Sequence record: MK327943.1 | Source of the DNA: Escherichia phage vB_EcoM_G53 | Length of the DNA stretch: 64,000 nt | Reading direction: 5' to 3' (one strand) | Shown here: positions 2,520 through 30,468 of the stretch, piece after piece | How positions within the stretch are numbered: position 1 is the first letter of the stretch | Layout: every line of letters starts with the position of its first letter | Notes under the pieces: model-generated | Seen by the model: the letters and a program-made list of their open reading frames with translations, nothing else | Database searches by the model: none | What the model was told of the DNA's origin: nothing | Program-made: the position numbers and the translations under genes

Positions 2520-3620
2520 TTACGCTGTGAAGATTTTATCCCACATCGCAACAACTGCATCTCGATTATACTTCTTCCATACTGCTTCAGCACGTTTAAC
2601 TCGAGCTTCGTATGTGTCAGTGAATTCTAATACAGCTTTTGTGTAAAGCGCAACTACTTCTTTCTTAGGAGTAGAGGAATCAATTTCTACACGCACAGTA
2701 TCCGGGTCGTATTCGAATGTCGCATGAGGATAATCCTTAAAAACTAACTGGATTACAGGGACACCTTTAGAGATGGCTTCAATAGAACTATTCTCTACCG
2801 TACCTGTGTCAGGACACGTATTAATAAGTGCTTTAGCCGTTTTAAGACGTTCCATGATTTCACTGTGTGGAGCATCAATAATAACAGGATATTTAGCTGG
2901 TGGTGCCCATTTGCTTGGACAGTATCCTGCACCATTTTCGCCTAGTGCTTTAATCGCTTCAAGAGCAACATCAGTACGACGCATTTTAGTGTCATAACGT
3001 TGTGCACTAATAATCAAATCCGTCGCCGGAAGAACTTCAGGTTTCTCATTCAAACAAATAACCGGATAATCTTCGGCTTCAAACAACGGATTTGCTCGCC
3101 AATAATCATAATCAATTTTGTCAGTCAGACCTGAAGTCATATAACAATATTTGCGTTCAAATTCACGGAAGGCTTTAGTAGGAGCATAACTCTTACCACC
3201 ATTCTTATGAATTTGAATAGTCTGGTCCCAAATTTGAACAATGCCACGAGATACCGGTTCAAATGGTGTTGCCATAAAATTCTTATGAACTTTAGAGAGA
3301 CCTGCGTCTTTAATTGCCTGAACGGTTAGTTTAGTCGGTTCCATAGTAACAACAAAATCGTATTCATGGATGCCGGCTAGTTCAACAATCTTACGAGCCA
3401 TAGTATAACTCATACCTAGACTGAATTTTGTCAGATGACCAACAGGATGATGATTAACCTTCCAATCACCAAACGTGTCATTGTCAAAACCGATATAATC
3501 AATATCAGCACCGATGGACACAAGATATTTCAACACATTTAAATGTACCGCTTCAAGACCACCTTGTACACGTTCTGGGTTAAATGGGACTGCACGAGAT
3601 GGGATAAACATAACTTTCAT
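2520..3620 (-). CDS. GT-B fold glycosyltransferase, candidate DNA 5-hmC glycosyl(arabinosyl)transferase
   Basis: 366-aa ORF; C-terminal GT4-like E-x7-EA-x3-G-x-PVI signature (TGTVENSSIEAISKGVPVI); sits where T4 carries gene 60/mobA. Confidence 0.55.
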   Translation of the reverse strand: MKVMFIPSRAVPFNPERVQGGLEAVHLNVLKYLVSIGADIDYIGFDNDTFGDWKVNHHPVGHLTKFSLGMSYTMARKIVELAGIHEYDFVVTMEPTKLTVQAIKDAGLSKVHKNFMATPFEPVSRGIVQIWDQTIQIHKNGGKSYAPTKAFREFERKYCYMTSGLTDKIDYDYWRANPLFEAEDYPVICLNEKPEVLPATDLIISAQRYDTKMRRTDVALEAIKALGENGAGYCPSKWAPPAKYPVIIDAPHSEIMERLKTAKALINTCPDTGTVENSSIEAISKGVPVIQLVFKDYPHATFEYDPDTVRVEIDSSTPKKEVVALYTKAVLEFTDTYEARVKRAEAVWKKYNRDAVVAMWDKIFTA

Positions 3621-9683: not shown

Positions 9684-10997
9684 TCAAATAAAATGGACGT
9701 CAAAACGACCACGAGTTGTGCCGACATACAATAATTGTTTAGCTAATTCTGAATCGGCATAATGGATACACGGTGTATAAACAAAGGCAGTGTCAACAGA
9801 CATACCCTGGGCCTTATGGAAGGTTGACACCGGTAGTGCCTTCACCTTAGTGAACATACGTTTAGCATCCCAGAATTCGCTCCATGGAGCTTTACCACCT
9901 TTATTCCAGAATTTGTATGTTTCTGCGGTCTTAGCCAAAAACAAATTGAATTTATAAAGCTCTTCTTCAGAAGAAATAACCTTTATATCTTCGCGGATGT
10001 ATTCTTCATCATCCCCATATGTTTCTACTGTAAGATTCCAGTATCGTATCATATATTCACCTGAAACACCACGTGCTTTAACGAATGTAGACGTTTCTAC
10101 AGCATCTCGAATACGAACGAATTGCCCATTATTGAAAAGCATTTCAGTCATATTTTTACCGTCTAGTTTATAAGTCTTAGTTAACGGTTCCTGTAGAACA
10201 ATGACTTCGTCTTTAATAAATGGTTTTTCTGTTTCAAGAAGTTTTCGGCGAATAATTGAATTTAACTTGTCCACCGACTTATTTGTGAATGCCATCATTC
10301 GATTTTCGAAAAGGTCTTCAGGAGTTTTAACAACGTTAAAATAGTTCATCATATATGATTTAAGGTCTGTATATCCGTGAACACCATGCCCGTCAACTAC
10401 TTTATCGTAAATCCATTTGCCATTACGAATATCAGTTGCAACATCAATAATTGGTGCATTGCTACGTTTAACTTCTGTAAGGTTGCATTGCACAAAGTCT
10501 TTGTGAGTGAAGAAAGGACTTAGATACGCAGTTGATTCGCCTGGGTCTACCGGACGAATCTGGCATCGGTCGCCGATTCCAATTACTGTACACCATTTAG
10601 GGATACTAGCTAACATTATTTTAAACAGAGAACGGTCACACATTGACGCTTCATCAAATAACAGTACACGACACAAGGCTAAGTCGGGAACCTTTTTCTG
10701 TTCAAACAATACGTTTTCTTCGTATGTAGTTGGGTTGATTTTAAGAATGCTATGAATAGTCGATGCTTCTTGACCCGCAAGTTTTCTTAGAACCTTTTTA
10801 GCAGCATGTGTAGGGGCTGCTAAAATAATACCTGATTCTCCAGAAGAAATAAGGGCTTCAACGATGAATCTAGTAAGGGTTGTTTTACCTGTACCAGCGG
10901 GCCCGTTAATAGTTACGTGATGTTTCTTTTCTTTAATAGCGTTCATAACAACGTTGAAGGCGTTTTTCTGGCCTTCAGTCAAATCATCAAATGTCAT
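9684..10997 (-). CDS. dda: Dda DNA helicase (SF1B)
   Basis: 437-aa ORF; Walker A GPAGTGKTT; T4 Dda is of similar length. Confidence 0.85.
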   Translation of the reverse strand: MTFDDLTEGQKNAFNVVMNAIKEKKHHVTINGPAGTGKTTLTRFIVEALISSGESGIILAAPTHAAKKVLRKLAGQEASTIHSILKINPTTYEENVLFEQKKVPDLALCRVLLFDEASMCDRSLFKIMLASIPKWCTVIGIGDRCQIRPVDPGESTAYLSPFFTHKDFVQCNLTEVKRSNAPIIDVATDIRNGKWIYDKVVDGHGVHGYTDLKSYMMNYFNVVKTPEDLFENRMMAFTNKSVDKLNSIIRRKLLETEKPFIKDEVIVLQEPLTKTYKLDGKNMTEMLFNNGQFVRIRDAVETSTFVKARGVSGEYMIRYWNLTVETYGDDEEYIREDIKVISSEEELYKFNLFLAKTAETYKFWNKGGKAPWSEFWDAKRMFTKVKALPVSTFHKAQGMSVDTAFVYTPCIHYADSELAKQLLYVGTTRGRFDVHFI

Positions 10998-11305
10998 CGT
11001 AAAGTCCCTGCAATTGGAATACTAACAATACGGCCTGTGTCCAGGATTCGTTGATACAATCTTTGCGTCTCCGCATCTAGTTTAATGTGTTTCATTTCAA
11101 GCTTATTAAACCAGAACTTACGCGGAGTTTCGACCATTCTTAGAACTCCCATTTTTAAATCTGTTTTATACTGTGTTTTCAAAGTATCGAAAACTTTATC
11201 TGCAATATCCTTTCTAAAAAATACTGCAGGACGATGCTCATCAAGTGGAACCGGGACAGTAAATCCTTCCATATCTCGATAAACTATTGCATATACATAA
11301 ACCAT
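10994..11305 (-). CDS. hypothetical protein
   Basis: 103-aa ORF overlapping the dda start by 4 nt. Confidence 0.45.
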   Translation of the reverse strand: MVYVYAIVYRDMEGFTVPVPLDEHRPAVFFRKDIADKVFDTLKTQYKTDLKMGVLRMVETPRKFWFNKLEMKHIKLDAETQRLYQRILDTGRIVSIPIAGTLR

Positions 11306-11307
11306 AA

Positions 11308-12054
11308 TTAACCTTTAATCAGTTGGAATAATGATGCGCTAAGTGGTAAGCCACGTTTCAATTTTAATTTACCAATGAAACCAATCTTTTCAAAACGTTG
11401 CAGACCTTGGATAACTTTATCATATGTATCGAAAAGCGATTCAGCGTCAGTTAATTTAGTTTTAGTTTTCCAGTCAGAGCCTTTAAGAAGAACGTTGAGT
11501 TTAGTAAGTTCATGGCCTTCTGCTTGATGTGAGCCGTTAATGCGTGCTTTCAAAGCAACAATTCTAAGTTTAGATTCGTTAGATAAAGGTTGATTTTTCA
11601 TCATGTTCGCCATATGCTTAACACGATTTTCACGTTTTGCTCGGATTTTTAAAATAGTACCATAAACATTTTTAATTTGGGCCCATTTCTTCTCGTCGAG
11701 ATTAAGTTTCTCTACTTTACGGGCAGAAGGATTAGCGATACGTCTTGCAATGGCATCACGTTTCTCAATAAGTTCTTCTAATGTTAAATCAGAACGAGCC
11801 GTGTTATATTTTTTCTTAACCGGGATGACATTACCTTTAATGTAGCCTATATCATTATTAAAACGTTCTAAGGATAATTTCTCACCTTCAACAGAGTTAT
11901 TAAAAGATTCACCTGAGTAAGCGCAGACCTTTTGATCAAGAATGTTTTTAAGGTAATTAAAGTCTAAGTTAAAATCCTTAGAGCGTCTCTTCGCAGAAGC
12001 TCTGGTGTGGTCAAGACGACGATTGATTTTGTTAATTTTATTATTTGATAACAT
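11308..12054 (-). CDS. Srd-like protein (position-based call)
   Basis: 248-aa basic ORF between the dda-proximal ORF and the ART pair, matching the T4 srd position and size. Confidence 0.35.
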   Translation of the reverse strand: MLSNNKINKINRRLDHTRASAKRRSKDFNLDFNYLKNILDQKVCAYSGESFNNSVEGEKLSLERFNNDIGYIKGNVIPVKKKYNTARSDLTLEELIEKRDAIARRIANPSARKVEKLNLDEKKWAQIKNVYGTILKIRAKRENRVKHMANMMKNQPLSNESKLRIVALKARINGSHQAEGHELTKLNVLLKGSDWKTKTKLTDAESLFDTYDKVIQGLQRFEKIGFIGKLKLKRGLPLSASLFQLIKG

Positions 12055-12103
12055 AATATTTTCCTCTGTCTTACGGACGTTTGGTCATTTAGCTGATAAG
12101 CTT

Positions 12104-12132
12104 ATAATATCATGCCCTCAGGTAGTGTACAC
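12104..12132 (-). promoter_or_regulatory. early promoter
   Basis: minus strand GTGTAC, 17-nt spacer, TATTAT upstream of the ATG at 12054. Confidence 0.45.
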
Positions 12133-12206
12133 TCTTTTTTCGTAAAATGCTTTAATTTTTTATGTGTTATAATGGTTCTGAGTTCCATCCGGTTATTCCA
12201 ATTCAG

Positions 12207-12815
12207 TCAGTAACTGACAATAGACAGATTCCAGATTGTATAACGTCCATCTTGAATAATAGAATCTACACGCAGTGTAGTCCCTATAGGGAGCATAAAT
12301 TCACATTCGTCAGATATAAGTCTAGCATTAGACCGTCTTGTCGCTTCAGGGAAAGCTCCATTGAACTCACAAGATGGCGCAGCCAGAATCATGTTAAGCA
12401 TATGTTCACGGAAGTTGAAAGCAAATGGTGCATCTTTAATGCAGAACATATTAAATGTTCCGTAAAAATTATACGAAGCAAAGTTACGTGCTACACCGAA
12501 CACTGGGCTGAAGCTCATTACTCTGTCAAATTTAATAATACTACCAATGCCTTTATCATCAAGTGTGGCCATAGTTTTCTTAGAGATTCCACGATACATT
12601 GTCTCAGGAACAGAAGACGACCAATTTCTACGAACGATTGAACTTAACTCCTGTTGAATACAGTCTGGCTTGTTTTCCATACACTGCCACAGTACACTTT
12701 GTTCAATGTCGCTGAATTGACTATCAATTTCGTATTGCAATTCATCTTGATATTCAGGGTTTTGAGCACGACGAACCATTTCTTCAATTTCACACTCGTT
12801 ATACGGCATAAACAT
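12207..12815 (-). CDS. ADP-ribosyltransferase, ModA/ModB family
   Basis: 202-aa ORF; R-S-E type motifs (YRG, SFSP, ECEF); paralog of 12873..13454. Confidence 0.6.
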   Translation of the reverse strand: MFMPYNECEIEEMVRRAQNPEYQDELQYEIDSQFSDIEQSVLWQCMENKPDCIQQELSSIVRRNWSSSVPETMYRGISKKTMATLDDKGIGSIIKFDRVMSFSPVFGVARNFASYNFYGTFNMFCIKDAPFAFNFREHMLNMILAAPSCEFNGAFPEATRRSNARLISDECEFMLPIGTTLRVDSIIQDGRYTIWNLSIVSY

Positions 12816-12843
12816 TTAGGTTTCTCCTGTGGTTGATAAAGGT

Positions 12844-12872
12844 ATAGTATCATCATCGGAAGAGTTTGTACA
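12844..12872 (-). promoter_or_regulatory. early promoter
   Basis: minus strand TGTACA, 17-nt spacer, TACTAT, directly after the upstream stop. Confidence 0.45.
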
Positions 12873-13454
12873 CTAAAAATTCAACATTTTCAAATGAATG
12901 ATTTTGTATAATCGAGATAAAGGGTCGTATTCTAAGTCTTCAATTTCCACAATCTCAAATCTAGAGATACCTGAGACCATGTACTCTTGTTCAGATTCAA
13001 TCATATCTAGGACGTCAACACGCGTTTCTTCCATAACATGCTTAGGGTTCTTTCCGGCGAGTACAATGTTAACCATGTTTTGGTAGTAATCAAAAATGAA
13101 TGGAGCATTCCTGAGACTAAGAATAGTGTACGTCTGATATTCCCATCTCCCAGAGAATTGACGAGCTGTACTGAAATCAGTTGTGAACGATGTTACTCGT
13201 CCAGGAGACCAATGGCATCCAACAGAAAGAAGAGAAAGACGTTCTACTTCTTCTGGAGTTACACCGCGGTAGAGTTCTACTGGTACTGTAGAAGTCATAT
13301 GCTTACGAACAAGATGGTCTAATTCATAGTGGAAATCCGGGTCTTCCTTAGAATCGGTGCAAGCCCAGAGAATGTTTTGTTCTTGGCGGGTGAATTTGCT
13401 ATCAATAAGATTTGTTAGGTATTCACGTTCTTGAAGTTCAGATTGACATGTCAT
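12873..13454 (-). CDS. ADP-ribosyltransferase, ModA/ModB family
   Basis: 193-aa ORF; YRG...SFTTDFSTARQF...EQEYM motifs. Confidence 0.6.
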   Translation of the reverse strand: MTCQSELQEREYLTNLIDSKFTRQEQNILWACTDSKEDPDFHYELDHLVRKHMTSTVPVELYRGVTPEEVERLSLLSVGCHWSPGRVTSFTTDFSTARQFSGRWEYQTYTILSLRNAPFIFDYYQNMVNIVLAGKNPKHVMEETRVDVLDMIESEQEYMVSGISRFEIVEIEDLEYDPLSRLYKIIHLKMLNF

Positions 13455-13506
13455 GATAGACCTCCATTTAAAGATAAGCCTATCATAACATGAGAGGAGG
13501 GAATGT

Positions 13507-13674
13507 AAACTACTTTTTAAGCTTTCCTACTAAAGGTCCATCAGGGCCAGGTTGTTCTAACATGAATAACGATGCTTTAAAAAGCAATGTTAACCCTTTC
13601 ACCATTCGATACCATGTCTCAAAGTCTTTTTCCTTGATTTCTAGTAAGAATTTCTCTTTAAATTTCTCTTTCAT
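13507..13674 (-). CDS. small hypothetical protein (55 aa), not in ORF track
   Basis: ATG overlaps the upstream stop as ATGA (13671..13674); ORF MKEKFKEKFLLEIKEKDFETWYRMVKG... Confidence 0.35.
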
Positions 13675-13859
13675 TTCCAAGGACTCCATGGTGGAGGGTC
13701 ATCATAATAAGAGGCAAGGTCTTTCAGGGCTTCAACAGGTAAACTAAAGCCGTGTCGTTGTATAATACTATCTAGTTCATCGACAAGTTCACTACGATGC
13801 ACTTTAGGAGCCTTGACTTCAGGCTCGTCAAACATACTCATAAGGTCCATATTATTCAC
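13671..13859 (-). CDS. small hypothetical protein
   Basis: 62-aa acidic ORF. Confidence 0.4.
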   Translation of the reverse strand: MNNMDLMSMFDEPEVKAPKVHRSELVDELDSIIQRHGFSLPVEALKDLASYYDDPPPWSPWK

Positions 13860-14316
13860 CTAAATAAAAACTAGCAGGTTCAGAGAATGTTTCTAGTGCT
13901 ACACCTTTTGTCTTAAAAAATTTCCAAATAGCTCGTTGCAAATGGATTAAATCTGCTAATGATGTAATAAAGTATTTTTTGGCAAAATACTTATGGTCTC
14001 GCTTTTCAAACAAGTCTAAACGCTTTTCAGGATTCACATAAACGGCATTTTCCGTAGATTCATAACCTAAGTCCTTTATGCCTTCTTCAAGACTAAACGG
14101 AGAATTTTTAGAATGAGTAATAGCTCCAACTCGCTCTACACGAATTTTGTAACCTTTAGGAATCTGCAATTTGCAGAATTCTTCTACGATATATTGCGGA
14201 TTATTTAGACTTTTGTTAATGAGAATAGCTATTTCTAGTGGAGTCTTATCTTCTACTGGTATATGTTTAAACGACTTGGCTTCAAGCAAATACATTTTAA
14301 ATAACATAGCATCCAT
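13852..14316 (-). CDS. hypothetical protein
   Basis: 154-aa ORF. Confidence 0.5.
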   Translation of the reverse strand: MDAMLFKMYLLEAKSFKHIPVEDKTPLEIAILINKSLNNPQYIVEEFCKLQIPKGYKIRVERVGAITHSKNSPFSLEEGIKDLGYESTENAVYVNPEKRLDLFEKRDHKYFAKKYFITSLADLIHLQRAIWKFFKTKGVALETFSEPASFYLGE

Positions 14317-22309: not shown

Positions 22310-22651
22310 TTAAAAGAATTTAAATTTTTTCTTGGTTCGTTCATTAAAAGCTTGTTGTACTTGCATTGTAACACATTTTTCAACGTGTGGTGCAAGTTCT
22401 GCTTTTCTGTCCTGGTCAAGAACTGCAAAGTCCATTACGATTTTACCATCAACCCAGTCTAGTTTTGTAATATAGACTATATGATGGGAACCGTCTTCAA
22501 GTGTAATCAGAATCTCTTGAATGACATTTTCCATTGCTGAACGGACAATTTTAAGAGATTCATTAAACACTCGTTCTTTGCGAATGTCCTCCCCTTCCGA
22601 AGAAGGGGATTCATCAACGATTTCTAGATTTAAATCATCGAGATTATTCAT
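22310..22651 (-). CDS. gp40-like protein (position-based)
   Basis: ORF between 41 and uvsX, as gene 40 in T4; start placed at the ATG after the uvsX stop. Confidence 0.4.
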   Translation of the reverse strand: MNNLDDLNLEIVDESPSSEGEDIRKERVFNESLKIVRSAMENVIQEILITLEDGSHHIVYITKLDWVDGKIVMDFAVLDQDRKAELAPHVEKCVTMQVQQAFNERTKKKFKFF

Positions 22652-23816
22652 CGAAATCTTCCATTTCGTCAAGGTCGTTTTCTATATCTGCTGCAGATGG
22701 AGCATCAGAAGTTTTAACCGGAACTTTAGTTGTTGCTTTGCAATTAATAAGGTCGTTAACAGCGTCATCAACTTCTTTAATAGAAGAGATAGCACCTAGT
22801 TTATATTTAGTTTCAATTGCATCTCGGAAAGGTTTGTGTTTAAACAAAGGTCCCCAGAATTCTACACAATCAGTAGCTTTAGCACGCCATGATTTTTCTT
22901 CACGAATCATTTCACCTGTTTCTTCGTCAAGGAATTCGCGAGCATACCAACCGGCTTTAGGCTTAACTACAAAACCAATTTCAGTTGCCATTTCTAACAA
23001 GCCACTGAATGGGTCAATACCGCCATCAAAATTAACCGTGATCGGGAAAGTAGATTTCTCTTTAACTGTGCGAGATTTTTCTGCTTTCAACGTGAAGTCA
23101 TAACCGGTCAATTCTGTACCTTCTTTAACCTGACGTTTAGAGATAAAAAACACTGTGTTGGCAGAATAAAGAATACCTGTACCACCGCCCATAATCTCTT
23201 TAGGATACAATCCACCGATTTCCATTGCTGTATGGTTGATTGCAACACATGGAATATCTTTAATAGTCAGATAAGGAGTCACAATGCGGAACAAAGATTT
23301 AAGTGCCTTAGCACGAGACATATCACCTACAACTTTCTCGTTCAACGCATCTTCGGTTTCTTTCTTAGATGCAGTATTACCAATCGAGTCAATAAAGATA
23401 ATAACTTTATCACCACGTTCAATCGCGTCAAGCTGATTAGTCATATCAACTTTAAGTTGTTCGACAGATTGAATCGGAGTATGAACTACACGGTCTAAAT
23501 CAACACCCATCGAACGGAAGTAAGATTCTGAAGCACCGAATTCTGAGTCATAAAACAAACAGATTGCATCTTTATATTTCTTCATATATGCTGCAACCAT
23601 GGTCAGCCCAAACAATGTTTTAAAGTGTTTAGAAGGAGCAGCAAAAATAGTTAAGCCTGATTGCAACCCGGCATTCAGTGCACCACCTAGTGCAATATTC
23701 AACATCGGAATACGAGTAGGGACTTCATCACGATTATTAAACAGCTTAGACTTAGTCAAGTCTGCAGTCATTTTAGAAGTAGAAGCTTTAATCAGACGAG
23801 ATTTTAAATCAGACAT
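22644..23816 (-). CDS. uvsX: UvsX recombinase (RecA-like)
   Basis: 390-aa ORF; N-terminus MSDLKSRLIKASTSK and RecA core match T4 UvsX as I recall it. Confidence 0.9.
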   Translation of the reverse strand: MSDLKSRLIKASTSKMTADLTKSKLFNNRDEVPTRIPMLNIALGGALNAGLQSGLTIFAAPSKHFKTLFGLTMVAAYMKKYKDAICLFYDSEFGASESYFRSMGVDLDRVVHTPIQSVEQLKVDMTNQLDAIERGDKVIIFIDSIGNTASKKETEDALNEKVVGDMSRAKALKSLFRIVTPYLTIKDIPCVAINHTAMEIGGLYPKEIMGGGTGILYSANTVFFISKRQVKEGTELTGYDFTLKAEKSRTVKEKSTFPITVNFDGGIDPFSGLLEMATEIGFVVKPKAGWYAREFLDEETGEMIREEKSWRAKATDCVEFWGPLFKHKPFRDAIETKYKLGAISSIKEVDDAVNDLINCKATTKVPVKTSDAPSAADIENDLDEMEDFDE

Positions 23817-23914
23817 TGTATTTTTCCATAGGCATCATTATATTTTACTCATGTTTAAAAGATAAGATGATTATATACTAAGGGTTATACAGCATTTAAA
23901 ACTTTAAATGGCTC

Positions 23915-24463
23915 TTAACGAGCCCATTTGATAATTTCTGTAATCAAATAATTACGTTCGCTTGCATTAAATCCTATAACTTTGTTAGCACCATCATGAT
24001 TAAGTAATTGATACGTTTGGATTTTGTTATGAATTGCAAACTCTTCAAAATGTGAAATGACTGTATTAAAACCGAATGAAGACAAAGTAATAAGGTCGTC
24101 TTCAAAACTTTCAGTCATTTCGTTACGTGTTAAAATAATTGTGAACACATCATGGTTTTGGCAAAGACGAACATAATCCTGTTCATAAACGTCAAGAACC
24201 GAGTCCGCATCTTGTCGAATACGTCCATAAACCCAGTTACTAATATATCCACGGTCTAACAGATAAATCTTAGTAGGGTCTAAATAATTCAACATCGTTT
24301 CGAAACAACCAACTTCATTTCGAGACTTAACATCGAATCGTCCATCAACTGTTCGTTTAGGGAAATCAATTTTTACATATCTTTCACTAATTTCCATTAT
24401 GTCATTAATGAAAGTTGTTTTACCAGCATTATCCGGGCCATCTACTAAAATAATTTTAGCCAT
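23915..24463 (-). CDS. P-loop nucleotide/nucleoside kinase-like protein
   Basis: 182-aa ORF; Walker A GPDNAGKTT near the N-terminus; sits where T4 carries beta-gt. Confidence 0.45.
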   Translation of the reverse strand: MAKIILVDGPDNAGKTTFINDIMEISERYVKIDFPKRTVDGRFDVKSRNEVGCFETMLNYLDPTKIYLLDRGYISNWVYGRIRQDADSVLDVYEQDYVRLCQNHDVFTIILTRNEMTESFEDDLITLSSFGFNTVISHFEEFAIHNKIQTYQLLNHDGANKVIGFNASERNYLITEIIKWAR

Positions 24464-24464
24464 T

Positions 24465-25364
24465 TTATTCCTCGATTACGACATCTTCATATTTAGGTAT
24501 ATTATACGGTGAAGAAATTAAAGCATTAAAGTAGATGAACTCACCAAGACCTGGATGAAATACTTCTTCAGGATTTTCGAAATATTGAATCTTCGGACGT
24601 CCTTTAAGAATTTGATAGTACTCAGTTTTAGTTGGTTTAAAAATTCGAATCAACGCTTCTTCAGGATACTTATTTCTGTCGAAGCTATTATTTGGATCGG
24701 TTATATAAAGCGGTTGACCTAATTGAATTGCACATTCAACCACTTGTTCAAAACGATAGCATGGGTCACTAATTCGAAATGGATGAAAAATACCATCTAG
24801 ATAAATAGGAGCCAAATCACCTACAAGACGCTGCATGATGGAAGGACGTATAACTTTCTGCGTTACGATAATCTTATTACCATCTGCACCTGCGTTAACC
24901 AGCACTTCTTTTTGACGTTCATTCAACACAGTAGTTTGAAGTGAACGATTAACCGACAACATGTCGGTTTTTAAGAATTCGTCAATATAAAAACGTGGTT
25001 TATTAGGGTCTGCAGTGATATTGAAATTGAATTCCACATCAAAAGCGCCGTCATATCCAGTGATATCTGTGATTAGAAAATCACAATCATAATAAGCAAT
25101 TAATGAATCAACCACAAATTCATTTTCAGACCAGAAATATTTACGAGTGTTATACGCGTTATCTTTATACCATAATGGAACAAACTTAAATTCTGGAAAA
25201 AGACGTTCGCATTCTTTAATATCAGATGCATTACGTGGATATGTAATCACATCACCCGGATTAGCACGGTGCAAATGAAGTTGGAAGTTGCCATCCTTAA
25301 GGATAGCATACTGTCCAGTTTCATAAGACCGCATACTCAAGATAGGTACGCGGAAAATAGCCAT
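24465..25364 (-). CDS. hypothetical protein (in the T4 beta-gt locus)
   Basis: 299-aa ORF tightly packed between the P-loop kinase and the gp42-like gene. Confidence 0.45.
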   Translation of the reverse strand: MAIFRVPILSMRSYETGQYAILKDGNFQLHLHRANPGDVITYPRNASDIKECERLFPEFKFVPLWYKDNAYNTRKYFWSENEFVVDSLIAYYDCDFLITDITGYDGAFDVEFNFNITADPNKPRFYIDEFLKTDMLSVNRSLQTTVLNERQKEVLVNAGADGNKIIVTQKVIRPSIMQRLVGDLAPIYLDGIFHPFRISDPCYRFEQVVECAIQLGQPLYITDPNNSFDRNKYPEEALIRIFKPTKTEYYQILKGRPKIQYFENPEEVFHPGLGEFIYFNALISSPYNIPKYEDVVIEE

Positions 25365-26080
25365 TAGTCAAGGAATCCTTTAACATAATCAAAATCACGT
25401 TCAAACACATGGGCACTTACCATGGTATGAGTATAATCACCAACTTCTACACCACATTCGTTAGCGATATAATGGAGTAATTTTCCTTGGAGATAAAAAT
25501 CCAACTGCATAACAACAGCACAGTTCTGAGAACGCATATGACAGTGGGTATAAAGTTTACCATCACGAATATAATAAGTCACTGAGTCAGTACATGGATA
25601 TTCAAGCGTTTCGTCTGAATCAAGCAAAGCCTGATCAGAACTTTCTAGAATTTGGAACACAACTCTTCGGGAGTTAGGCTTCTCTTTAAGTTCTTTTAGA
25701 AGAGCTGGTAATTGGGCCGCAATGCGAGGACCATAGAAAGTGTTGAAGTTCGCAGGCAAAACATCTGATTTTGGTTTAGAAATAAATTTAGCGACATTAG
25801 GATATGCCTTAAACGCTTCTTCCGCATCAGTACCACCAGAAATCATAAACTTCCAGAAGTCTTCGGCATATTCATAAGAGATGCGGTTAATACGTGGGTC
25901 GGTCATTTTGAATGATGATGGGGTGTCAACAACTACTGTCATAGACCCAATTTCATTACAACGTCCAATACGAGAATCAGTTACGAATTCCGGGTTTTCT
26001 AAAATTTCACGATTGACTGCTTTAAATGCGGCTTGAAAATCTGCGGCTTTGATATATTTCATTGTGTTATGTTTTCCCAT
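25364..26080 (-). CDS. 42: dCMP hydroxymethylase-like (thymidylate synthase superfamily), gp42
   Basis: 238-aa ORF; active-site region PCTDSVTYYIRDGKLYTHCHMRSQN aligns with the T4 gp42 MCTNTVQYLIRD...NMRSND region as I recall it. Confidence 0.65.
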   Translation of the reverse strand: MGKHNTMKYIKAADFQAAFKAVNREILENPEFVTDSRIGRCNEIGSMTVVVDTPSSFKMTDPRINRISYEYAEDFWKFMISGGTDAEEAFKAYPNVAKFISKPKSDVLPANFNTFYGPRIAAQLPALLKELKEKPNSRRVVFQILESSDQALLDSDETLEYPCTDSVTYYIRDGKLYTHCHMRSQNCAVVMQLDFYLQGKLLHYIANECGVEVGDYTHTMVSAHVFERDFDYVKGFLD

Positions 26081-26122: not shown

Positions 26123-26362
26123 TTATTTGAATTTCTTGGCAATGTTGATATAACGTAAAGCTTCACCATCAATACTTCCAAGAACACTATGAAGAAATGT
26201 ATCAGCGTAGTATTCCAATTGAACAGGTTCTTTAATCACTTTAGCCGCTTTGGTTTCAAAAAGGCCCATCAGGGCCTTTTTAAGAATTTGTTCGTTAGTG
26301 TTCAGTTTCGTAGTCAAAATCTCTTCATTAAGTTGGTGGTTAAAAGTTTTTCTAGAAATCAT
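26123..26362 (-). CDS. small hypothetical protein
   Basis: 79-aa ORF. Confidence 0.4.
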   Translation of the reverse strand: MISRKTFNHQLNEEILTTKLNTNEQILKKALMGLFETKAAKVIKEPVQLEYYADTFLHSVLGSIDGEALRYINIAKKFK

Positions 26363-27531
26363 TCCGGGTACCTCAAAGCGTCATCAGAGTTAGTTATATC
26401 AATAATAGATATAGAGTTTTCTGCTAACCCGTTTTTAGATAATTGACGTTTATAATATCTTTCACAATATGTACACGTCGTCCCGCAGATTTCATTAGCA
26501 CAATCGAAATCTGGATGTCTGAACCACCTTTTTTCTAAAAAGCCATCTAACAAAGAGGTTTCAATATTTACTGTATGTGAAAACTCGGTCTCATTTTCAA
26601 GAGTGAAAATAGTCTCTAAAGGCTTCCACAGTTCTAACAAATTACCTTCAAACTTTTCAGAAGCGTATGCTTCAAGAACTTTCAAAATGTAGTCTGTGCT
26701 ACCTGTACGTCCTGAAACTTTGAATTGAGTGATACCAATATCATTATAAAGTTTCAAATCTTGAGGACGAACAAAACGAGTTCTCAACCAGTTAAATGGG
26801 TCTGTATCACGAGCTTTAATACAGTGCTGCATTGGATAACCGTTTAAGGATTTAGCATCATCAGCTGTAACATCAGTACTATGGAAAATATAGCAAGAGT
26901 CACGATAGCTACAATGTGTTGTATACCCTTTACCAGCATTAGAACAGAACTCATTTACAAGAACTTCAAATATTATATTGTTCTTATTGCAAAACTCTGC
27001 TGCACGCTTCAGGAAAGAAACTGAACGGTTCTTATGAATTCCACAACAGACCTTTTTGATATTATATTGGTCGTGCAAGTATTTGATTTGAGTTACAGCA
27101 TCGACATGTAGAATTGTTGAAACTTCAATCTCAATGTCTTTATTGACTTCACGAACAATTTCCATAACAACAGGGTTAGCGATAGTAATACGCCATACGC
27201 CTATTGACCAAAGATACTGAACATAATCCTGAATAGCTTTCTTCTTCCACTCAACTAGTTCTCTTTTTGAACCAGGATTTATCGTGTTGAGTGTATAGTT
27301 AAAGCAAATACCTAATTCGTTACAACGTTTAACGTAATCTTCTAACATCTTTTTGTCAACGTCAGGAAGCCTAAAATCAGGTCTGGCTGCTACAAAAGCC
27401 ATTTCTCTTGTAGAGCCGTATACTTCATTTATCAAGCTATTAGGATAAGTTTTATTGAGCTCTACGATTTTATCAAGAAGAGCTAAATCAAAATTCGTTC
27501 CGATTTTAAAAGTATTCATTTTTTTTTGCAT
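26359..27531 (-). CDS. Cys-rich enzyme-like protein, possible Fe-S / U32-like fold (tentative)
   Basis: 390-aa ORF with clustered cysteines (CSNAGKGYTTHCSYRDSC; CANEICGTTCTYC); no radical-SAM CxxxCxxC. Confidence 0.3.
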   Translation of the reverse strand: MQKKMNTFKIGTNFDLALLDKIVELNKTYPNSLINEVYGSTREMAFVAARPDFRLPDVDKKMLEDYVKRCNELGICFNYTLNTINPGSKRELVEWKKKAIQDYVQYLWSIGVWRITIANPVVMEIVREVNKDIEIEVSTILHVDAVTQIKYLHDQYNIKKVCCGIHKNRSVSFLKRAAEFCNKNNIIFEVLVNEFCSNAGKGYTTHCSYRDSCYIFHSTDVTADDAKSLNGYPMQHCIKARDTDPFNWLRTRFVRPQDLKLYNDIGITQFKVSGRTGSTDYILKVLEAYASEKFEGNLLELWKPLETIFTLENETEFSHTVNIETSLLDGFLEKRWFRHPDFDCANEICGTTCTYCERYYKRQLSKNGLAENSISIIDITNSDDALRYPE

Positions 27532-27578: not shown

Positions 27579-27980
27579 TTATAGATTCGGTTTATATGAT
27601 TTAAATGTTTCGAATTCGCCTTTATTCATAAGAGCTTTGAATTCGTCAGGACGCATAGCTTTGTCGTCGATAATCCAATCATATACTGGTTTATGTGTTA
27701 GCAAATTATGGTACTTCAAACCAATGTTTGCCAAGTTCTGAATCAGACTTGGGAGAATGTCAATTGCTATACGACCAGGACCTACTGACTTCATACCGCG
27801 AGCAGTGTAAAGCGTTATTGTATGCCCTGCATCATACAGGGCATTAATGGCAGACACCATTTCGACGTCTGGTTTGAAGTTCACGTAATCACGATTGTTA
27901 TTCCACTCTGTTATACAATCATCGACATCAAAACAAAGATTAAGCATGTTTTCTACACAGTGCATTAGATTCGTTCCCAT
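27579..27980 (-). CDS. HAD-superfamily phosphatase (small, sugar-phosphate phosphatase-like)
   Basis: 133-aa ORF; HAD motif I FDVDDCI, motif II LYTARG, motif III/IV K...IIDDK. Confidence 0.6.
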   Translation of the reverse strand: MGTNLMHCVENMLNLCFDVDDCITEWNNNRDYVNFKPDVEMVSAINALYDAGHTITLYTARGMKSVGPGRIAIDILPSLIQNLANIGLKYHNLLTHKPVYDWIIDDKAMRPDEFKALMNKGEFETFKSYKPNL

Positions 27981-29650
27981 TGATGAGTGATATCGCCACC
28001 GATTGGACGATAGGAAACACCAGTTTCTTTATCAGTTAGTACCCATTTACCAGGATTTTTTGTAATCAGAGTAGCCGTTACAGGTTCTGCCACGTCATAA
28101 CTAATAGAGCCGTCTTGAAGTACACGGCCCATGTTACGTAATTGCTTAGTCAGAAGTTCCATACCTTTATAATATGCGGCTACCGCTTTAAGTGGATTAT
28201 TCTTGAAATAACCACCTAATGCAATCCAGATAATTGCCACTGCCAAATGATGATACTCGTTAAACGAACTCATCTTTCCATATTTGTAAACTAATGGATT
28301 GATGTTAATAGTCACATTACAAGTTGTTTCATCAATAGTAAACTGCCCCCAGGTCGGATTAGCGTTGAATTCATCATAACCTGAAACAGCATAAAGCACT
28401 TTAGCTTCATCATACAATTTTGGCCCGTAAATCTTGGTTTCGCCAAAATATCCACGAGGGTCGATAAACTTGACTTCGCCGTTATCAGTAATCATAGTAT
28501 TACTGAAGTTCGGGTCACCGTGAATAACAGAGTACTGTCCCTGAGAACGGTTATGATACCGAATAAGGTGTTCTAAAGCTTGTTTCAGCATTGGCTTCAG
28601 ACGTCCAATCTTAGTGTAGTTCACATGTGTGATTTTACCAAATGAATCAATCAATGGTTGAATGCTTTCACAACGATCAATAACTTTCGTATAGAATTCT
28701 TTAGTGAAATCACGACGAACAGTTTCAGGACTTACAAAATAAGTGTCTGTGCTGAATTTCAGTGCATCTAAAATTGCATCAACAATTTGTGGACGAGCAA
28801 GACTTGATTTGGATTTAATATATTCAAATGCCGGCTTACCTTTAATGCGTTCCATTTCAAAGTTATTTTCATTAACAGAAACTAACTGAGGGACTGAATC
28901 TGATTTCACTTTCAAATACCACGAAATCTCATCTTTCTGAAGAGCTCGGCCCTGTTCGGTTAATGCGAATTTAGTTACAGTTTCTTCACCAATTTCAACT
29001 GCATTAAAACTACGATTAAGTTCACGAACTTCATGAGCTTTTTCAAGTTTAGGCATATCACCTAAATCAATTAGATTCATAAGCTCTGATTTATTGAATG
29101 CGCTGCCGTAAAGGAATTCTACGAAATCACGTCCTTTGCAGTATTCATGAATTTCCTCATCAGTAGAACCCATATAGAATTCCCAGTCTTTGAACTGATA
29201 AATTCCTACAACATTACCACCTGTTGAACCTACGTTAGTGATATTTTCACCGTCGAAATTATATCGACATTCGTCACCCTTAACATAGATTGCGTTAACA
29301 TTCCAAGACCATGAACCAAAATCGGGAATAATATCACACCAGTTAACAATTACGTTATGGCCGTCTAAATCTTTGTGTAATTTAGCAAGAGCATAAGCAG
29401 ATCCATACGCTTCATCAACTGTACGAATAGTCACATTGAACCCTTCTTGCTCACAATAAGCTCGAACAGTTTCAGCAAATTTTGAATGAACTACTACAAT
29501 AATTTCATCTGCGCCAAGGTCAGAATAAATTGTATACAAATTGCTCAGAATAGTGTCTTGTTTATAGTTAACAAGCACCTTAGGAATATGATGCGTTATT
29601 GGATACAAACGAGTTGCCAGTCCAGCACCAAGAATAACAGCTTTTTTCAT
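27965..29650 (-). CDS. bifunctional sugar-1-phosphate nucleotidyltransferase (N-term) / sugar kinase (C-term, APH/ChoK-like)
   Basis: 561-aa ORF; N-terminal ILGAGLATRL nucleotidyltransferase motif (LicC/RmlA-like); C-terminal HGDPNFSN...DNGEVKFIDPRGY kinase motifs (LicA/APH-like). Confidence 0.65.
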   Translation of the reverse strand: MKKAVILGAGLATRLYPITHHIPKVLVNYKQDTILSNLYTIYSDLGADEIIVVVHSKFAETVRAYCEQEGFNVTIRTVDEAYGSAYALAKLHKDLDGHNVIVNWCDIIPDFGSWSWNVNAIYVKGDECRYNFDGENITNVGSTGGNVVGIYQFKDWEFYMGSTDEEIHEYCKGRDFVEFLYGSAFNKSELMNLIDLGDMPKLEKAHEVRELNRSFNAVEIGEETVTKFALTEQGRALQKDEISWYLKVKSDSVPQLVSVNENNFEMERIKGKPAFEYIKSKSSLARPQIVDAILDALKFSTDTYFVSPETVRRDFTKEFYTKVIDRCESIQPLIDSFGKITHVNYTKIGRLKPMLKQALEHLIRYHNRSQGQYSVIHGDPNFSNTMITDNGEVKFIDPRGYFGETKIYGPKLYDEAKVLYAVSGYDEFNANPTWGQFTIDETTCNVTININPLVYKYGKMSSFNEYHHLAVAIIWIALGGYFKNNPLKAVAAYYKGMELLTKQLRNMGRVLQDGSISYDVAEPVTATLITKNPGKWVLTDKETGVSYRPIGGDITHQWERI

Positions 29651-29704: not shown

Positions 29705-29836
29705 TCATACTTTGCCTGTAGACCAATCATAATCCATCCAATTACAAGTGTTGGAACCATTACTGGAGCCGTTAAGCTCCAGTAGATAGTCCATGACAAG
29801 CATCAATAGTAAAAGTCCTATTGTTATTGCTTTCAT
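29705..29836 (-). CDS. small hydrophobic peptide (43 aa), not in ORF track
   Basis: ATG overlaps the SIS gene stop as ATGA; MKAITIGLLLLMLVMDYLLEL... Confidence 0.3.
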   Translation of the reverse strand: MKAITIGLLLLMLVMDYLLELNGSSNGSNTCNWMDYDWSTGKV

Positions 29837-30468
29837 TGTTCGCCTCGTAACATGGCACCTAGTGCACCGCCTGGATGGAACTTAAGGAAATCATTAGAGG
29901 TAAATCCACGTTCAGACGAAAGGTTGATAGCAAACGTATCGATAAGCGCTAACAACAATGTAGTGGACATAGTCGGAGCCAGAGAATTCTCATCAACCTC
30001 TACTGCGATGCCTGTACAGAAAGAGTAATCAAAAAGGGCTTCATTTTCTTGTGGAATGTCTGGGTTACAATGCAACAGAATCTGTTTGACGTTCGGTCGA
30101 ATCATTTTAAGATGCTTAGCCACGCCTATCATTTCTTCAGTTTTACCAGAACGACTAATATGAATCAACACATCATTAGGCGCAATGAATCCTGCATCAC
30201 CGTGAGAATAATGCCCAGTGTTCAAGTACATACTCGGGATACCGAGTGAAGCAAATGTCTCAGAAGCTTTAGTTGCAATATTAGCATTCTTACCAACACC
30301 TGTAATAATTACTCGGCTTTCATAATTACTAAGACCCGGGCGTCGAAGAGTTTCTAGAATAGCATTATAACGAGCAGGGTTTTGACTAATTACTTTGGCC
30401 ATAGCGGCCAAAGAAGAAGCTTGTTTTATGATTGCGTCAATAGCGATAGTAATAGGAGTAGTTTTCAT
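29833..30468 (-). CDS. SIS-domain sugar-phosphate isomerase (KdsD/GutQ-type arabinose-5-phosphate isomerase-like, no CBS domains)
   Basis: 211-aa ORF; GVGKNANIATK...HYSHGD...ISRSGKTEE matches KpsF/GutQ SIS motifs. Confidence 0.7.
   Translation of the reverse strand: MKTTPITIAIDAIIKQASSLAAMAKVISQNPARYNAILETLRRPGLSNYESRVIITGVGKNANIATKASETFASLGIPSMYLNTGHYSHGDAGFIAPNDVLIHISRSGKTEEMIGVAKHLKMIRPNVKQILLHCNPDIPQENEALFDYSFCTGIAVEVDENSLAPTMSTTLLLALIDTFAINLSSERGFTSNDFLKFHPGGALGAMLRGEQ

Follow-up and report, generated by a model that had tools for sequence, protein, structure and literature searches.

A thymidylate-kinase-fold protein and a GT-B glycosyltransferase encoded in the arabinosyl-5-hydroxycytosine gene cluster of Escherichia phage vB_EcoM_G53

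The gene pair and its locus

Two adjacent genes of Escherichia phage vB_EcoM_G53, one encoding a P-loop kinase of 182 amino acids (aa) and the other a glycosyltransferase of 299 aa, are the subject of this analysis. We examined them in a stretch of 64,000 nucleotides (nt) from sequence record MK327943.1, which we call the window; all coordinates are collected in Table 1. The pair is located between the uvsX homolog and a gene for a homolog of thymidylate synthase (TS) and T4 gp42. In T4 the order at the same place is uvsX-segA-b-gt-42 (T4 genome annotation), so an initial annotation of the window, made from its letters alone, was right to place the pair at the T4 beta-gt position. Both genes belong to the core of the gene cluster with which RB69-like (Mosigvirus) phages hypermodify their DNA to arabinosyl-5-hydroxycytosine.

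Membership in the published RB69/HY126-type cluster follows from shared gene order, high DNA identity and near-identical proteins. The gene order is that of RB69p044-p056, in which the 182-aa open reading frame (ORF) is RB69p045 and the 299-aa ORF is RB69p046 plus p047. A phage-database search gave about 99% DNA identity of this region to many Mosigvirus genomes, and the Mosigvirus NicPhage is 99.1% identical over it. The kinase and the TS homolog differ from their RB69 counterparts by two amino acids each, and a second transferase gene, of the RB69 gp3 type, has window coordinates equal to the RB69 genome coordinates of ORF003c. In Table 1 of Lee et al. (Nucleic Acids Res 2026, PMC13326640) RB69p045 is a 'nucleotide kinase' and p046:47 is 'arabinosyltransferase 1'. 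This synteny also agrees with the earlier suggestion that the pair acts in a DNA-modification pathway supplied by the adjacent TS homolog.

The RB69 record (NC_004928.1) contains one extra T compared to the window and its relatives (alignment column 545), and the transferase is split there into ORF046 and ORF047. RefSeq annotates the parts as two hypothetical proteins, which become colinear with the window once the extra T is removed; the split has been described as a 'sequencing error' (PMC13326640). In the window the transferase is one intact 299-aa ORF. Otherwise nothing material differs between this gene pair and that of RB69.

The stop codon of the TS gene and the start codon of the transferase gene overlap as TAATG. 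The kinase ATG is 1 nt past the transferase stop, and a GAGG is found a few bases upstream of it. Such overlapping or abutting frames suggest that the three genes are translationally coupled. Among close relatives, the ratio of nonsynonymous to synonymous polymorphism (pN/pS) is 0.03-0.26 for the kinase and transferase genes. This low ratio, conservation in about 345 phage records and confident structure models together indicate that these are real genes and not chance ORFs.

The TS homolog and the modified base

Compared to E. coli ThyA, the TS homolog has the substitutions D169N and N177D in the alignment. The aligned motifs read RSQN...QLD in the window, RSCD...PFN in ThyA and RSND...RND in T4 gp42. 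The Asn169/Asp177 combination is diagnostic for 5-hydroxy-dCMP synthases (Lee et al., PMC13326640), and the RB69 ortholog, gp48, makes 5-hydroxy-dCMP (5hodCMP) using flavin and O2 (PMC13326640). At 538 bits and over its full length, the window protein matches PDB entries 9iqc/9ir2, deposited as 'Thymidylate synthase'. We take these to be the HY126 ortholog, since the gp3-type transferase of the window matches an HY126 protein and Lee et al. mention an HY126 crystal structure of this TS-type enzyme. No HY126 record is among the phage-database matches listed, and the near-identity to HY126 rests on PDB sequences.

The initial annotation regarded this gp42 homolog as a producer of 5-hydroxymethylcytosine (hmC). 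That view has to be abandoned because of the D169N signature and the near-identity to the 5hodCMP-forming enzymes of HY126 and RB69: judged by its sequence, the neighbour is a 5-hydroxy-dCMP synthase, not a dCMP hydroxymethylase. Published work of others found mono- and di-arabinosyl-5-hydroxycytosine, not arabinosyl-hmC, in RB69 and NicPhage DNA.

The 299-aa glycosyltransferase

The AlphaFold model of the 299-aa protein (46 homologs in the alignment) has a predicted local distance difference test score (pLDDT) of 94.8. It consists of two Rossmann-like domains with an inter-domain cleft, which is the GT-B fold. The best fold matches are sucrose-phosphate synthase (6kih, score 17.7), BshA (16.8), PimA (15.9), the HY126 glycosyltransferase (9iqz, 14.7) and T4 alpha-GT (13.2). 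The closest folds are GT4-type bacterial, retaining glycosyltransferases, and there are no nucleotidyltransferases among the matches. What was initially called an unknown is a GT-B glycosyltransferase, already published as the putative first arabinosyltransferase. With this fold and its orthology to arabinosyltransferase 1, the protein fits well the other early proposal, that the pair includes a second-step DNA modification enzyme.

Sequence searches alone would have missed the fold: there is no Pfam family at E<=0.1, with the Pfam glycosyltransferase models silent, no NCBIfam match, and no PDB sequence relative by single-sequence or profile search. Homology to T4 beta-gt was considered and set aside, as there is no sequence similarity and beta-gt is not the closest fold. 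The 299-aa protein is 50-100 residues shorter than T4 beta-gt and alpha-gt. Whereas T4 beta-gt transfers glucose from UDP-glucose to hmC, the proposed acceptor here is 5-hydroxycytosine (5hoC) and the proposed donor UDP-arabinofuranose (UDP-Araf).

Conserved positions in the C-terminal domain are R197 and K246 (both invariant) and H270-P-G-x-x-E/D275; R197 and K246 could bind the diphosphate. The GT4 motif E-x7-E is absent, as no second acidic residue stands eight positions after E/D275. In the N-terminal part the family has an invariant segment, S10-M-R-S13 ... K23-D-G-N26.

Matches to the 299-aa family (tblastn) occur in 348 phage records, from phages of Escherichia, Acinetobacter, Klebsiella, Serratia, Shewanella, Yersinia, Proteus and other hosts. 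The gp3-type transferase occurs in 211 records, with one copy in Escherichia/Shigella (Mosigvirus-type) phages and two in Acinetobacter phages. Reported arabinosylation is mono in LC53, di in Bas46 and RB69 and tri in DLP3 (Lee et al., PMC13326640; Tn-seq preprint). Since the 299-aa family is in every lineage, the gp3 type is restricted and its copy pattern matches the sugar numbers, the 299-aa transferase should be the base-proximal one. We propose that it may be the universal first transferase, with the gp3 type as an add-on. RL38J1 gp215 is a member of the same family (hhalign 99.4%) and has been proposed as the first galactosyltransferase of a galactosyl-5hoC phage (Lee et al., PMC13326640). 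The transposon-sequencing (Tn-seq) preprint contains no essentiality data for the kinase and transferase genes in Bas46 or LC53.

The 182-aa kinase

The AlphaFold model of the 182-aa protein has a pLDDT of 87.1, with a low-confidence loop at residues 121-130. Its best structural matches are thymidylate kinases (TMKs), e. g. vaccinia A48R (2v54), and the TMK fold is present. The initial description of a Walker-A protein resembling nucleotide kinases was therefore accurate. A TMK-type P-loop, G-x-(D/E)-x-x-G-K-(S/T), is found as G9-P-D11-N-A-G14-K15-T16, and a DR motif as D70-R71. The acidic residue of the TMK P-loop contacts the 3'-OH of deoxyribose. Among 52 non-identical family members Lys15 and Arg71 are universal, and G9, D11, G14, D70 and S75 are kept in 88-98%.

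Assignment by sequence is less clear. The protein matches PHROG 761 at 2e-45, and both PHROG 761 and several RefSeq records are named 'thymidylate kinase'. There is no match to Pfam PF02223, and the score with TIGR00041 is 16 bits where 83.25 would be required. Searches of PDB sequences, with the single sequence and with a profile, returned only P-loop matches (RecA and weakly TMK). T4 gp1 (1dek) was tried as the model for the protein and rejected, being the closest neither in fold nor in sequence. In its proposed role the protein resembles T4 gp1 (gp159 in RB69) as a phage kinase for modified dCMP; gp159 phosphorylates 5hodCMP. Structure revealed both folds of the pair. Of the profile searches proposed with the initial annotation, those of Pfam, NCBIfam and PDB sequences gave nothing of use. 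The published structure-based calls of nucleotide kinase and arabinosyltransferase 1 are reproduced by our fold comparison.

What can be said about the base pocket comes from comparison with E. coli Tmk. A local hhalign run against the single Tmk sequence aligned only 25 P-loop columns; a global profile alignment, using a broader family alignment, reached a probability of 76%. The latter pairs the P-loops, FPKR with FTRE, Phe54 with the base-stacking Phe74, and D70-R71 with D-R-H. Tmk Arg78 (in A-A-R78-V) is opposite a gap of four residues and the nearest family residue is the invariant Leu58, which, in an alignment of 76% probability, is suggestive. This arginine (Arg76 in the human enzyme) reads the O4 of thymine. 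Asn12 stands where class I TMKs have Arg, the LID is short, and the only conserved arginine near the low-confidence loop is Arg113. Our reading is that the 182-aa protein is probably an active deoxynucleoside monophosphate (dNMP) kinase whose base pocket is unlike that of thymidylate kinase, the substrate being inferred.

Co-occurrence across phages

We collected 61 loci encoding relatives of the transferase, with about 25% to 98% identity, and scanned them with profiles; many of these are close relatives, and the counts are not independent. A kinase homolog was found in 58 of the 61; of the three loci without one, two are contigs that break off at the transferase gene. The kinase gene is immediately 3' of the transferase gene in 41 loci, usually with overlapping frames, and immediately 5' in four. 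It is 0.5-2.9 kilobases (kb) away in 12 loci, in 11 of which it stands between a HAD gene and a TS or U32 gene, and 6.5 kb away in one. In the phage database the kinase is present in 343 records, and its distribution over genera is that of the transferase.

The loci come from Straboviridae of many genera and from Pootjesviridae, and contigs of jumbo phages (216-356 kb) also carry the pair, with a kinase that is only 28% identical. In Shewanella phage Thanatos the genes are TH1_062-063-064; TH1_063, between TS and kinase, is 48% identical to the 299-aa protein. In Rhizobium phage RL38J1, which represents the Pootjesviridae (9792-14227 of the locus), the order TS-transferase-kinase is gp216-215-214. 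Acinetobacter phage DLP3 (gp78/gp79), Thanatos (TH1_064/TH1_063) and RL38J1 (gp214/gp215) have the same two families in the same TS-transferase-kinase order. All three phages have sugars ether-linked to 5-hydroxycytosine, with transferases 25-48% identical to that of the window, and RL38J1 attaches galactose, not arabinose (Lee et al., PMC13326640). The TS, transferase and kinase genes travel as one module among widely different phages.

Some variations on this theme can be mentioned. The P-loop of the RL38J1 kinase is G-L-D-R-T-G-K-D and has Asp where Ser/Thr would be usual. The same phage has a separate gene annotated as dNMP kinase, gp219, located 3 kb from the triad and weakly similar to T4 gp1 (E 0.006). 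In phages of the Klebsiella, Dhakavirus and Proteus types (loci L007-L009, L013-L017, L022, L027 and L028) the kinase stands apart from the transferase and is about 37-41% identical, against about 67% for the transferase. Their divergence suggests that the kinase gene was relocated or replaced by a distant homolog, in which case the requirement for it would have persisted.

A proposed pathway and its alternatives

We consider it fairly probable that the 182-aa kinase phosphorylates a modified dCMP and that the 5-hydroxyl receives its first arabinose from the 299-aa enzyme, both roles being inferred from fold and context. The pathway would then run as follows. The TS homolog would hydroxylate dCMP to 5hodCMP, a step shown for the RB69 and HY126 orthologs. 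The 182-aa kinase would take 5hodCMP to the diphosphate, in parallel with a gp1-type kinase, after which host NDP kinase and the phage polymerase would put 5-hydroxycytosine into DNA. The GT-B enzyme would move the base-proximal arabinofuranose (Araf) from UDP-Araf to the 5-hydroxyl, as its fold, universality and synteny suggest. The donor would be supplied by the downstream isomerase, AfhE-like and HAD genes, and the gp3-type transferase would add a second arabinose. For orthologs, conversion of 5hodCMP to 5hodCDP by the gp1-type kinase, synthesis of UDP-Araf by AfhE/AfhF types and addition of the later arabinoses on DNA have been demonstrated (PMC13326640). A dedicated kinase for a modified nucleotide, as the initial annotation had it, is still the best description of the 182-aa protein; which nucleotide it takes is the conjectural part.

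Several observations do not fit this scheme easily. Individual DLP3 transferases, including the ortholog gp79, gave no arabinosylation of 5hoC-DNA (Lee et al., PMC13326640). RB69 gp159, of the T4 gp1 type, already makes 5hodCDP from 5hodCMP (PMC13326640); another kinase acting at this step seems superfluous, but its conservation is strict. In the only published assay of a family member, Thanatos TH1_063 was reported to form UDP-xylose and transferred nothing. Also, both the kinase and the transferase are below every Pfam and NCBIfam threshold.

The first two difficulties would disappear if glycosylation preceded replication. The transferase would arabinosylate free 5hodCMP, the kinase would phosphorylate the resulting ara-5hodCMP, which a gp1-type kinase may not accept because of its bulk, and the polymerase would insert a glycosylated dCTP analogue. 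The order hydroxylase-transferase-kinase, with overlapping or abutting frames, is kept from T4-like to jumbo phages and Pootjesviridae, which speaks for this reading. Simple redundancy is made less likely by two unrelated phage families in which a gp1-type dNMP kinase is kept alongside a kinase of the 182-aa type. Many Arg, Lys, Ser and Tyr residues are invariant in the acceptor domain of the transferase, and knockout of a UDP-sugar enzyme nearly abolishes propagation of Thanatos (published). The inactivity of gp79 and the other DLP3 transferases on 5hoC-DNA is also in line with it, and Lee et al. cannot tell whether the first arabinosylation takes place on the mononucleotide or on DNA (PMC13326640). 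If the idea is true, it explains why two dNMP kinases are kept and why gp79 fails on 5hoC-DNA.

Nevertheless, we regard pre-replicative glycosylation, the main alternative, as unlikely, if worth keeping in mind. TS and a gp1-type kinase alone, without the transferase, put 5hodC into plasmid DNA (PMC13326640), hence 5hodCTP is made and polymerised. The negative DLP3 result in vitro may reflect inactive protein, and several lineages have the kinase apart from the transferase, between a HAD gene and a TS or U32 gene. To our knowledge, every characterised phage DNA glycosylation, as in the T-even phages, is post-replicative, and that precedent weighs against a pre-replicative one, which would be the first of its kind that we know of. 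Host glycosylases attack naked 5-hydroxycytosine, and this can explain a near-essential sugar.

Another possibility is that the 299-aa protein is no transferase but activates the sugar as an NDP-pentose pyrophosphorylase, and that some other protein then attaches it to the base. Such a role would account directly for the published Thanatos assay: purified TH1_063 made UDP-xylose from UTP and xylose-1-phosphate and transferred nothing to plasmid DNA, dCMP, dCTP or cytosine. However, none of these acceptors has a 5-hydroxyl, so no transfer would be expected. The GT-B fold, with retaining glycosyltransferases and no nucleotidyltransferases as best matches, argues against it as well. Moreover, the cluster already has a nucleotidyltransferase domain, the HY126 AfhE being reported to make UDP-arabinose (PMC13326640), and phages reported as mono-arabinosylated have no other transferase of the gp3 type. 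We find this explanation improbable.

It is slightly more improbable that the 182-aa protein is an ordinary thymidylate kinase, which provides dTDP for an AT-rich genome and has nothing to do with cytosine modification. Its best structural matches are TMKs, its P-loop Asp and DR motif are TMK-like, and 'thymidylate kinase' is its name in many GenBank records. Nevertheless, it falls below all dTMP-kinase model thresholds, the counterpart of the thymine-reading arginine was not found in the 76% alignment, and it accompanies the 5hoC transferase in nearly all loci and in the same genera. T4 gp1 already phosphorylates dTMP (annotation). A kinase specific for dTMP only, the outcome named initially as fatal to a role in modification, is not what these comparisons point to.

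Least probable of all is that the P-loop protein is a sugar kinase, a DNA-base kinase like 5-hydroxymethyldeoxyuridine (5-hmdU) DNA kinase, or a partner of the transferase without catalytic activity. No sequence model assigns it a substrate and translational coupling would suit a complex, but it has two TMK-specific features, the P-loop Asp and the FP(K)R motif, and universal conservation of the Walker A Lys and the DR Arg makes catalysis likely. A sugar kinase was set aside because that reaction is assigned to the AfhE-type protein, in its C-terminal domain (PMC13326640). A DNA-base kinase was set aside as well: O-glycosylation needs a free 5-hydroxyl, so that phosphorylation of the base would presumably be counter-productive.

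What is new and why it matters

For RB69, DLP3, Thanatos and RL38J1, the literature already describes the two genes, the folds assigned to their products and their position in the pathway. Given these orthologs and the near-identity to crystallised HY126 proteins, the finding is essentially known. We add the counts of kinase-transferase co-occurrence and adjacency and the distribution argument for a universal first transferase. We also add the homology of the arabinosyl and RL38J1 first transferases and the apparent absence of the thymine-reading Arg in the kinase, as far as the alignments allow.

Phages with arabinosyl-5-hydroxycytosine are protected by it from restriction enzymes, CRISPR-Cas and DNA glycosylases. 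Many coliphages considered for therapy are Mosigviruses. The kinase and the putative first transferase are the least characterised part of the pathway. Their strict co-inheritance, from T4-like to jumbo and Rhizobium phages, makes the question of the kinase substrate and of the first sugar acceptor sharp and testable. The three genes, i. e. the D169N TS homolog, the transferase family and the kinase family, also provide a signature for finding glycosyl-5-hydroxycytosine phages in metagenomes.

Other genes of the cluster

Table 1. Features of the window discussed in the text
Feature	Position	Strand	Remarks
366-aa second glycosyltransferase, RB69 ORF003c/gp3 type	2520-3620	-	829 bits full length to PDB 9iqz/9ir0
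UvsX homolog	22644-23816		Downstream of kinase in transcription direction
182-aa thymidylate-kinase-fold P-loop kinase, RB69 gp45 ortholog	23915-24463	-	Walker A G9-P-D-N-A-G-K15-T16
299-aa compact GT-B glycosyltransferase, RB69 gp46:47 ortholog ('arabinosyltransferase 1')	24465-25364	-	
238-aa TS/gp42 homolog, predicted 5-hydroxy-dCMP synthase	25364-26080	-	Pfam PF00303; upstream of 299-aa gene
79-aa conserved protein, RB69 gp49	26123-26362	-	PHROG 8601 at 2e-49; between TS homolog and U32 gene
390-aa U32-family protein, RB69 gp50	26359-27531	-	Pfam PF01136 at 7.5e-11; aligned with E. coli TrhP, RlhA
133-aa HAD-type phosphatase, RB69 gp51/AfhF-like	27579-27980	-	PHROG 1238
561-aa bifunctional nucleotidyltransferase and kinase, RB69 gp52:53/AfhE-like	27965-29650	-	Pfam NTP_transferase residues 3-99
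211-aa SIS-domain arabinose-5-phosphate isomerase, RB69 gp55	29833-30468	-	Pfam SIS 1e-10; PHROG 5670 at 4e-116

The genes for UDP-arabinose supply are present in the window: the arabinose-5-phosphate isomerase, the bifunctional kinase/nucleotidyltransferase and the HAD phosphatase. The phosphatase converts Araf-1,5-P2 to Araf-1-P (summarised in PMC13326640), and the AfhE-like protein makes UDP-arabinofuranose (PMC13326640). Around residues 350-400 the latter has weak Pfam matches to APH and fructosamine kinase. The PDB entries matched by the gp3-type transferase, 9iqz/9ir0, have the title 'phage HY126 glycosyltransferase'. The small gp49-type ORF, which has no detectable domain, overlaps the U32 gene by 4 nt and is found only in close relatives.

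The U32 protein deserves some attention. For its RB69 ortholog, gp50, Table 1 of PMC13326640 gives no more than 'sugar or heterocycle reductase', and the text of that paper does not discuss it. The U32-family proteins RlhA and TrhP are prephenate-dependent, O2-independent factors for 5-hydroxycytidine and 5-hydroxyuridine in RNA (PMC6599085). The phage proteins keep Cys170 and Cys197 of TrhP and have an extra C-terminal cluster, C-x4-C-x3-C-x2-C. In four distant loci (L052, L053, L055 and L057) the order is kinase-transferase-U32, adjoining a DNA polymerase III (Pol III) alpha gene, and a search of these loci detected no TS homolog even at E<=10. The phage U32 protein may hydroxylate cytosine at C5 by an alternative route, possibly an anaerobic one; our literature search found no paper that proposes this.

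A scan of the cluster for promoters and terminators gave no excess over shuffled sequence. Between the kinase and uvsX genes there are 98 nt from stop to start (23817-23914, minus strand), with aaTGCTgtA, 12 nt and then TATAAT, which we take to resemble a MotA-dependent middle promoter of T4 that would drive uvsX; a generic sigma-70 scan did not single out this site.

In some Mosigviruses, among them phage NRG-P0074 (locus 12118-12879), an inserted homing endonuclease separates the HAD gene from the AfhE-type gene. The window is without it, and the two genes overlap there (27965-27980). The NRG-P0074 record wrongly labels its AfhE-type gene 'dCMP deaminase'.

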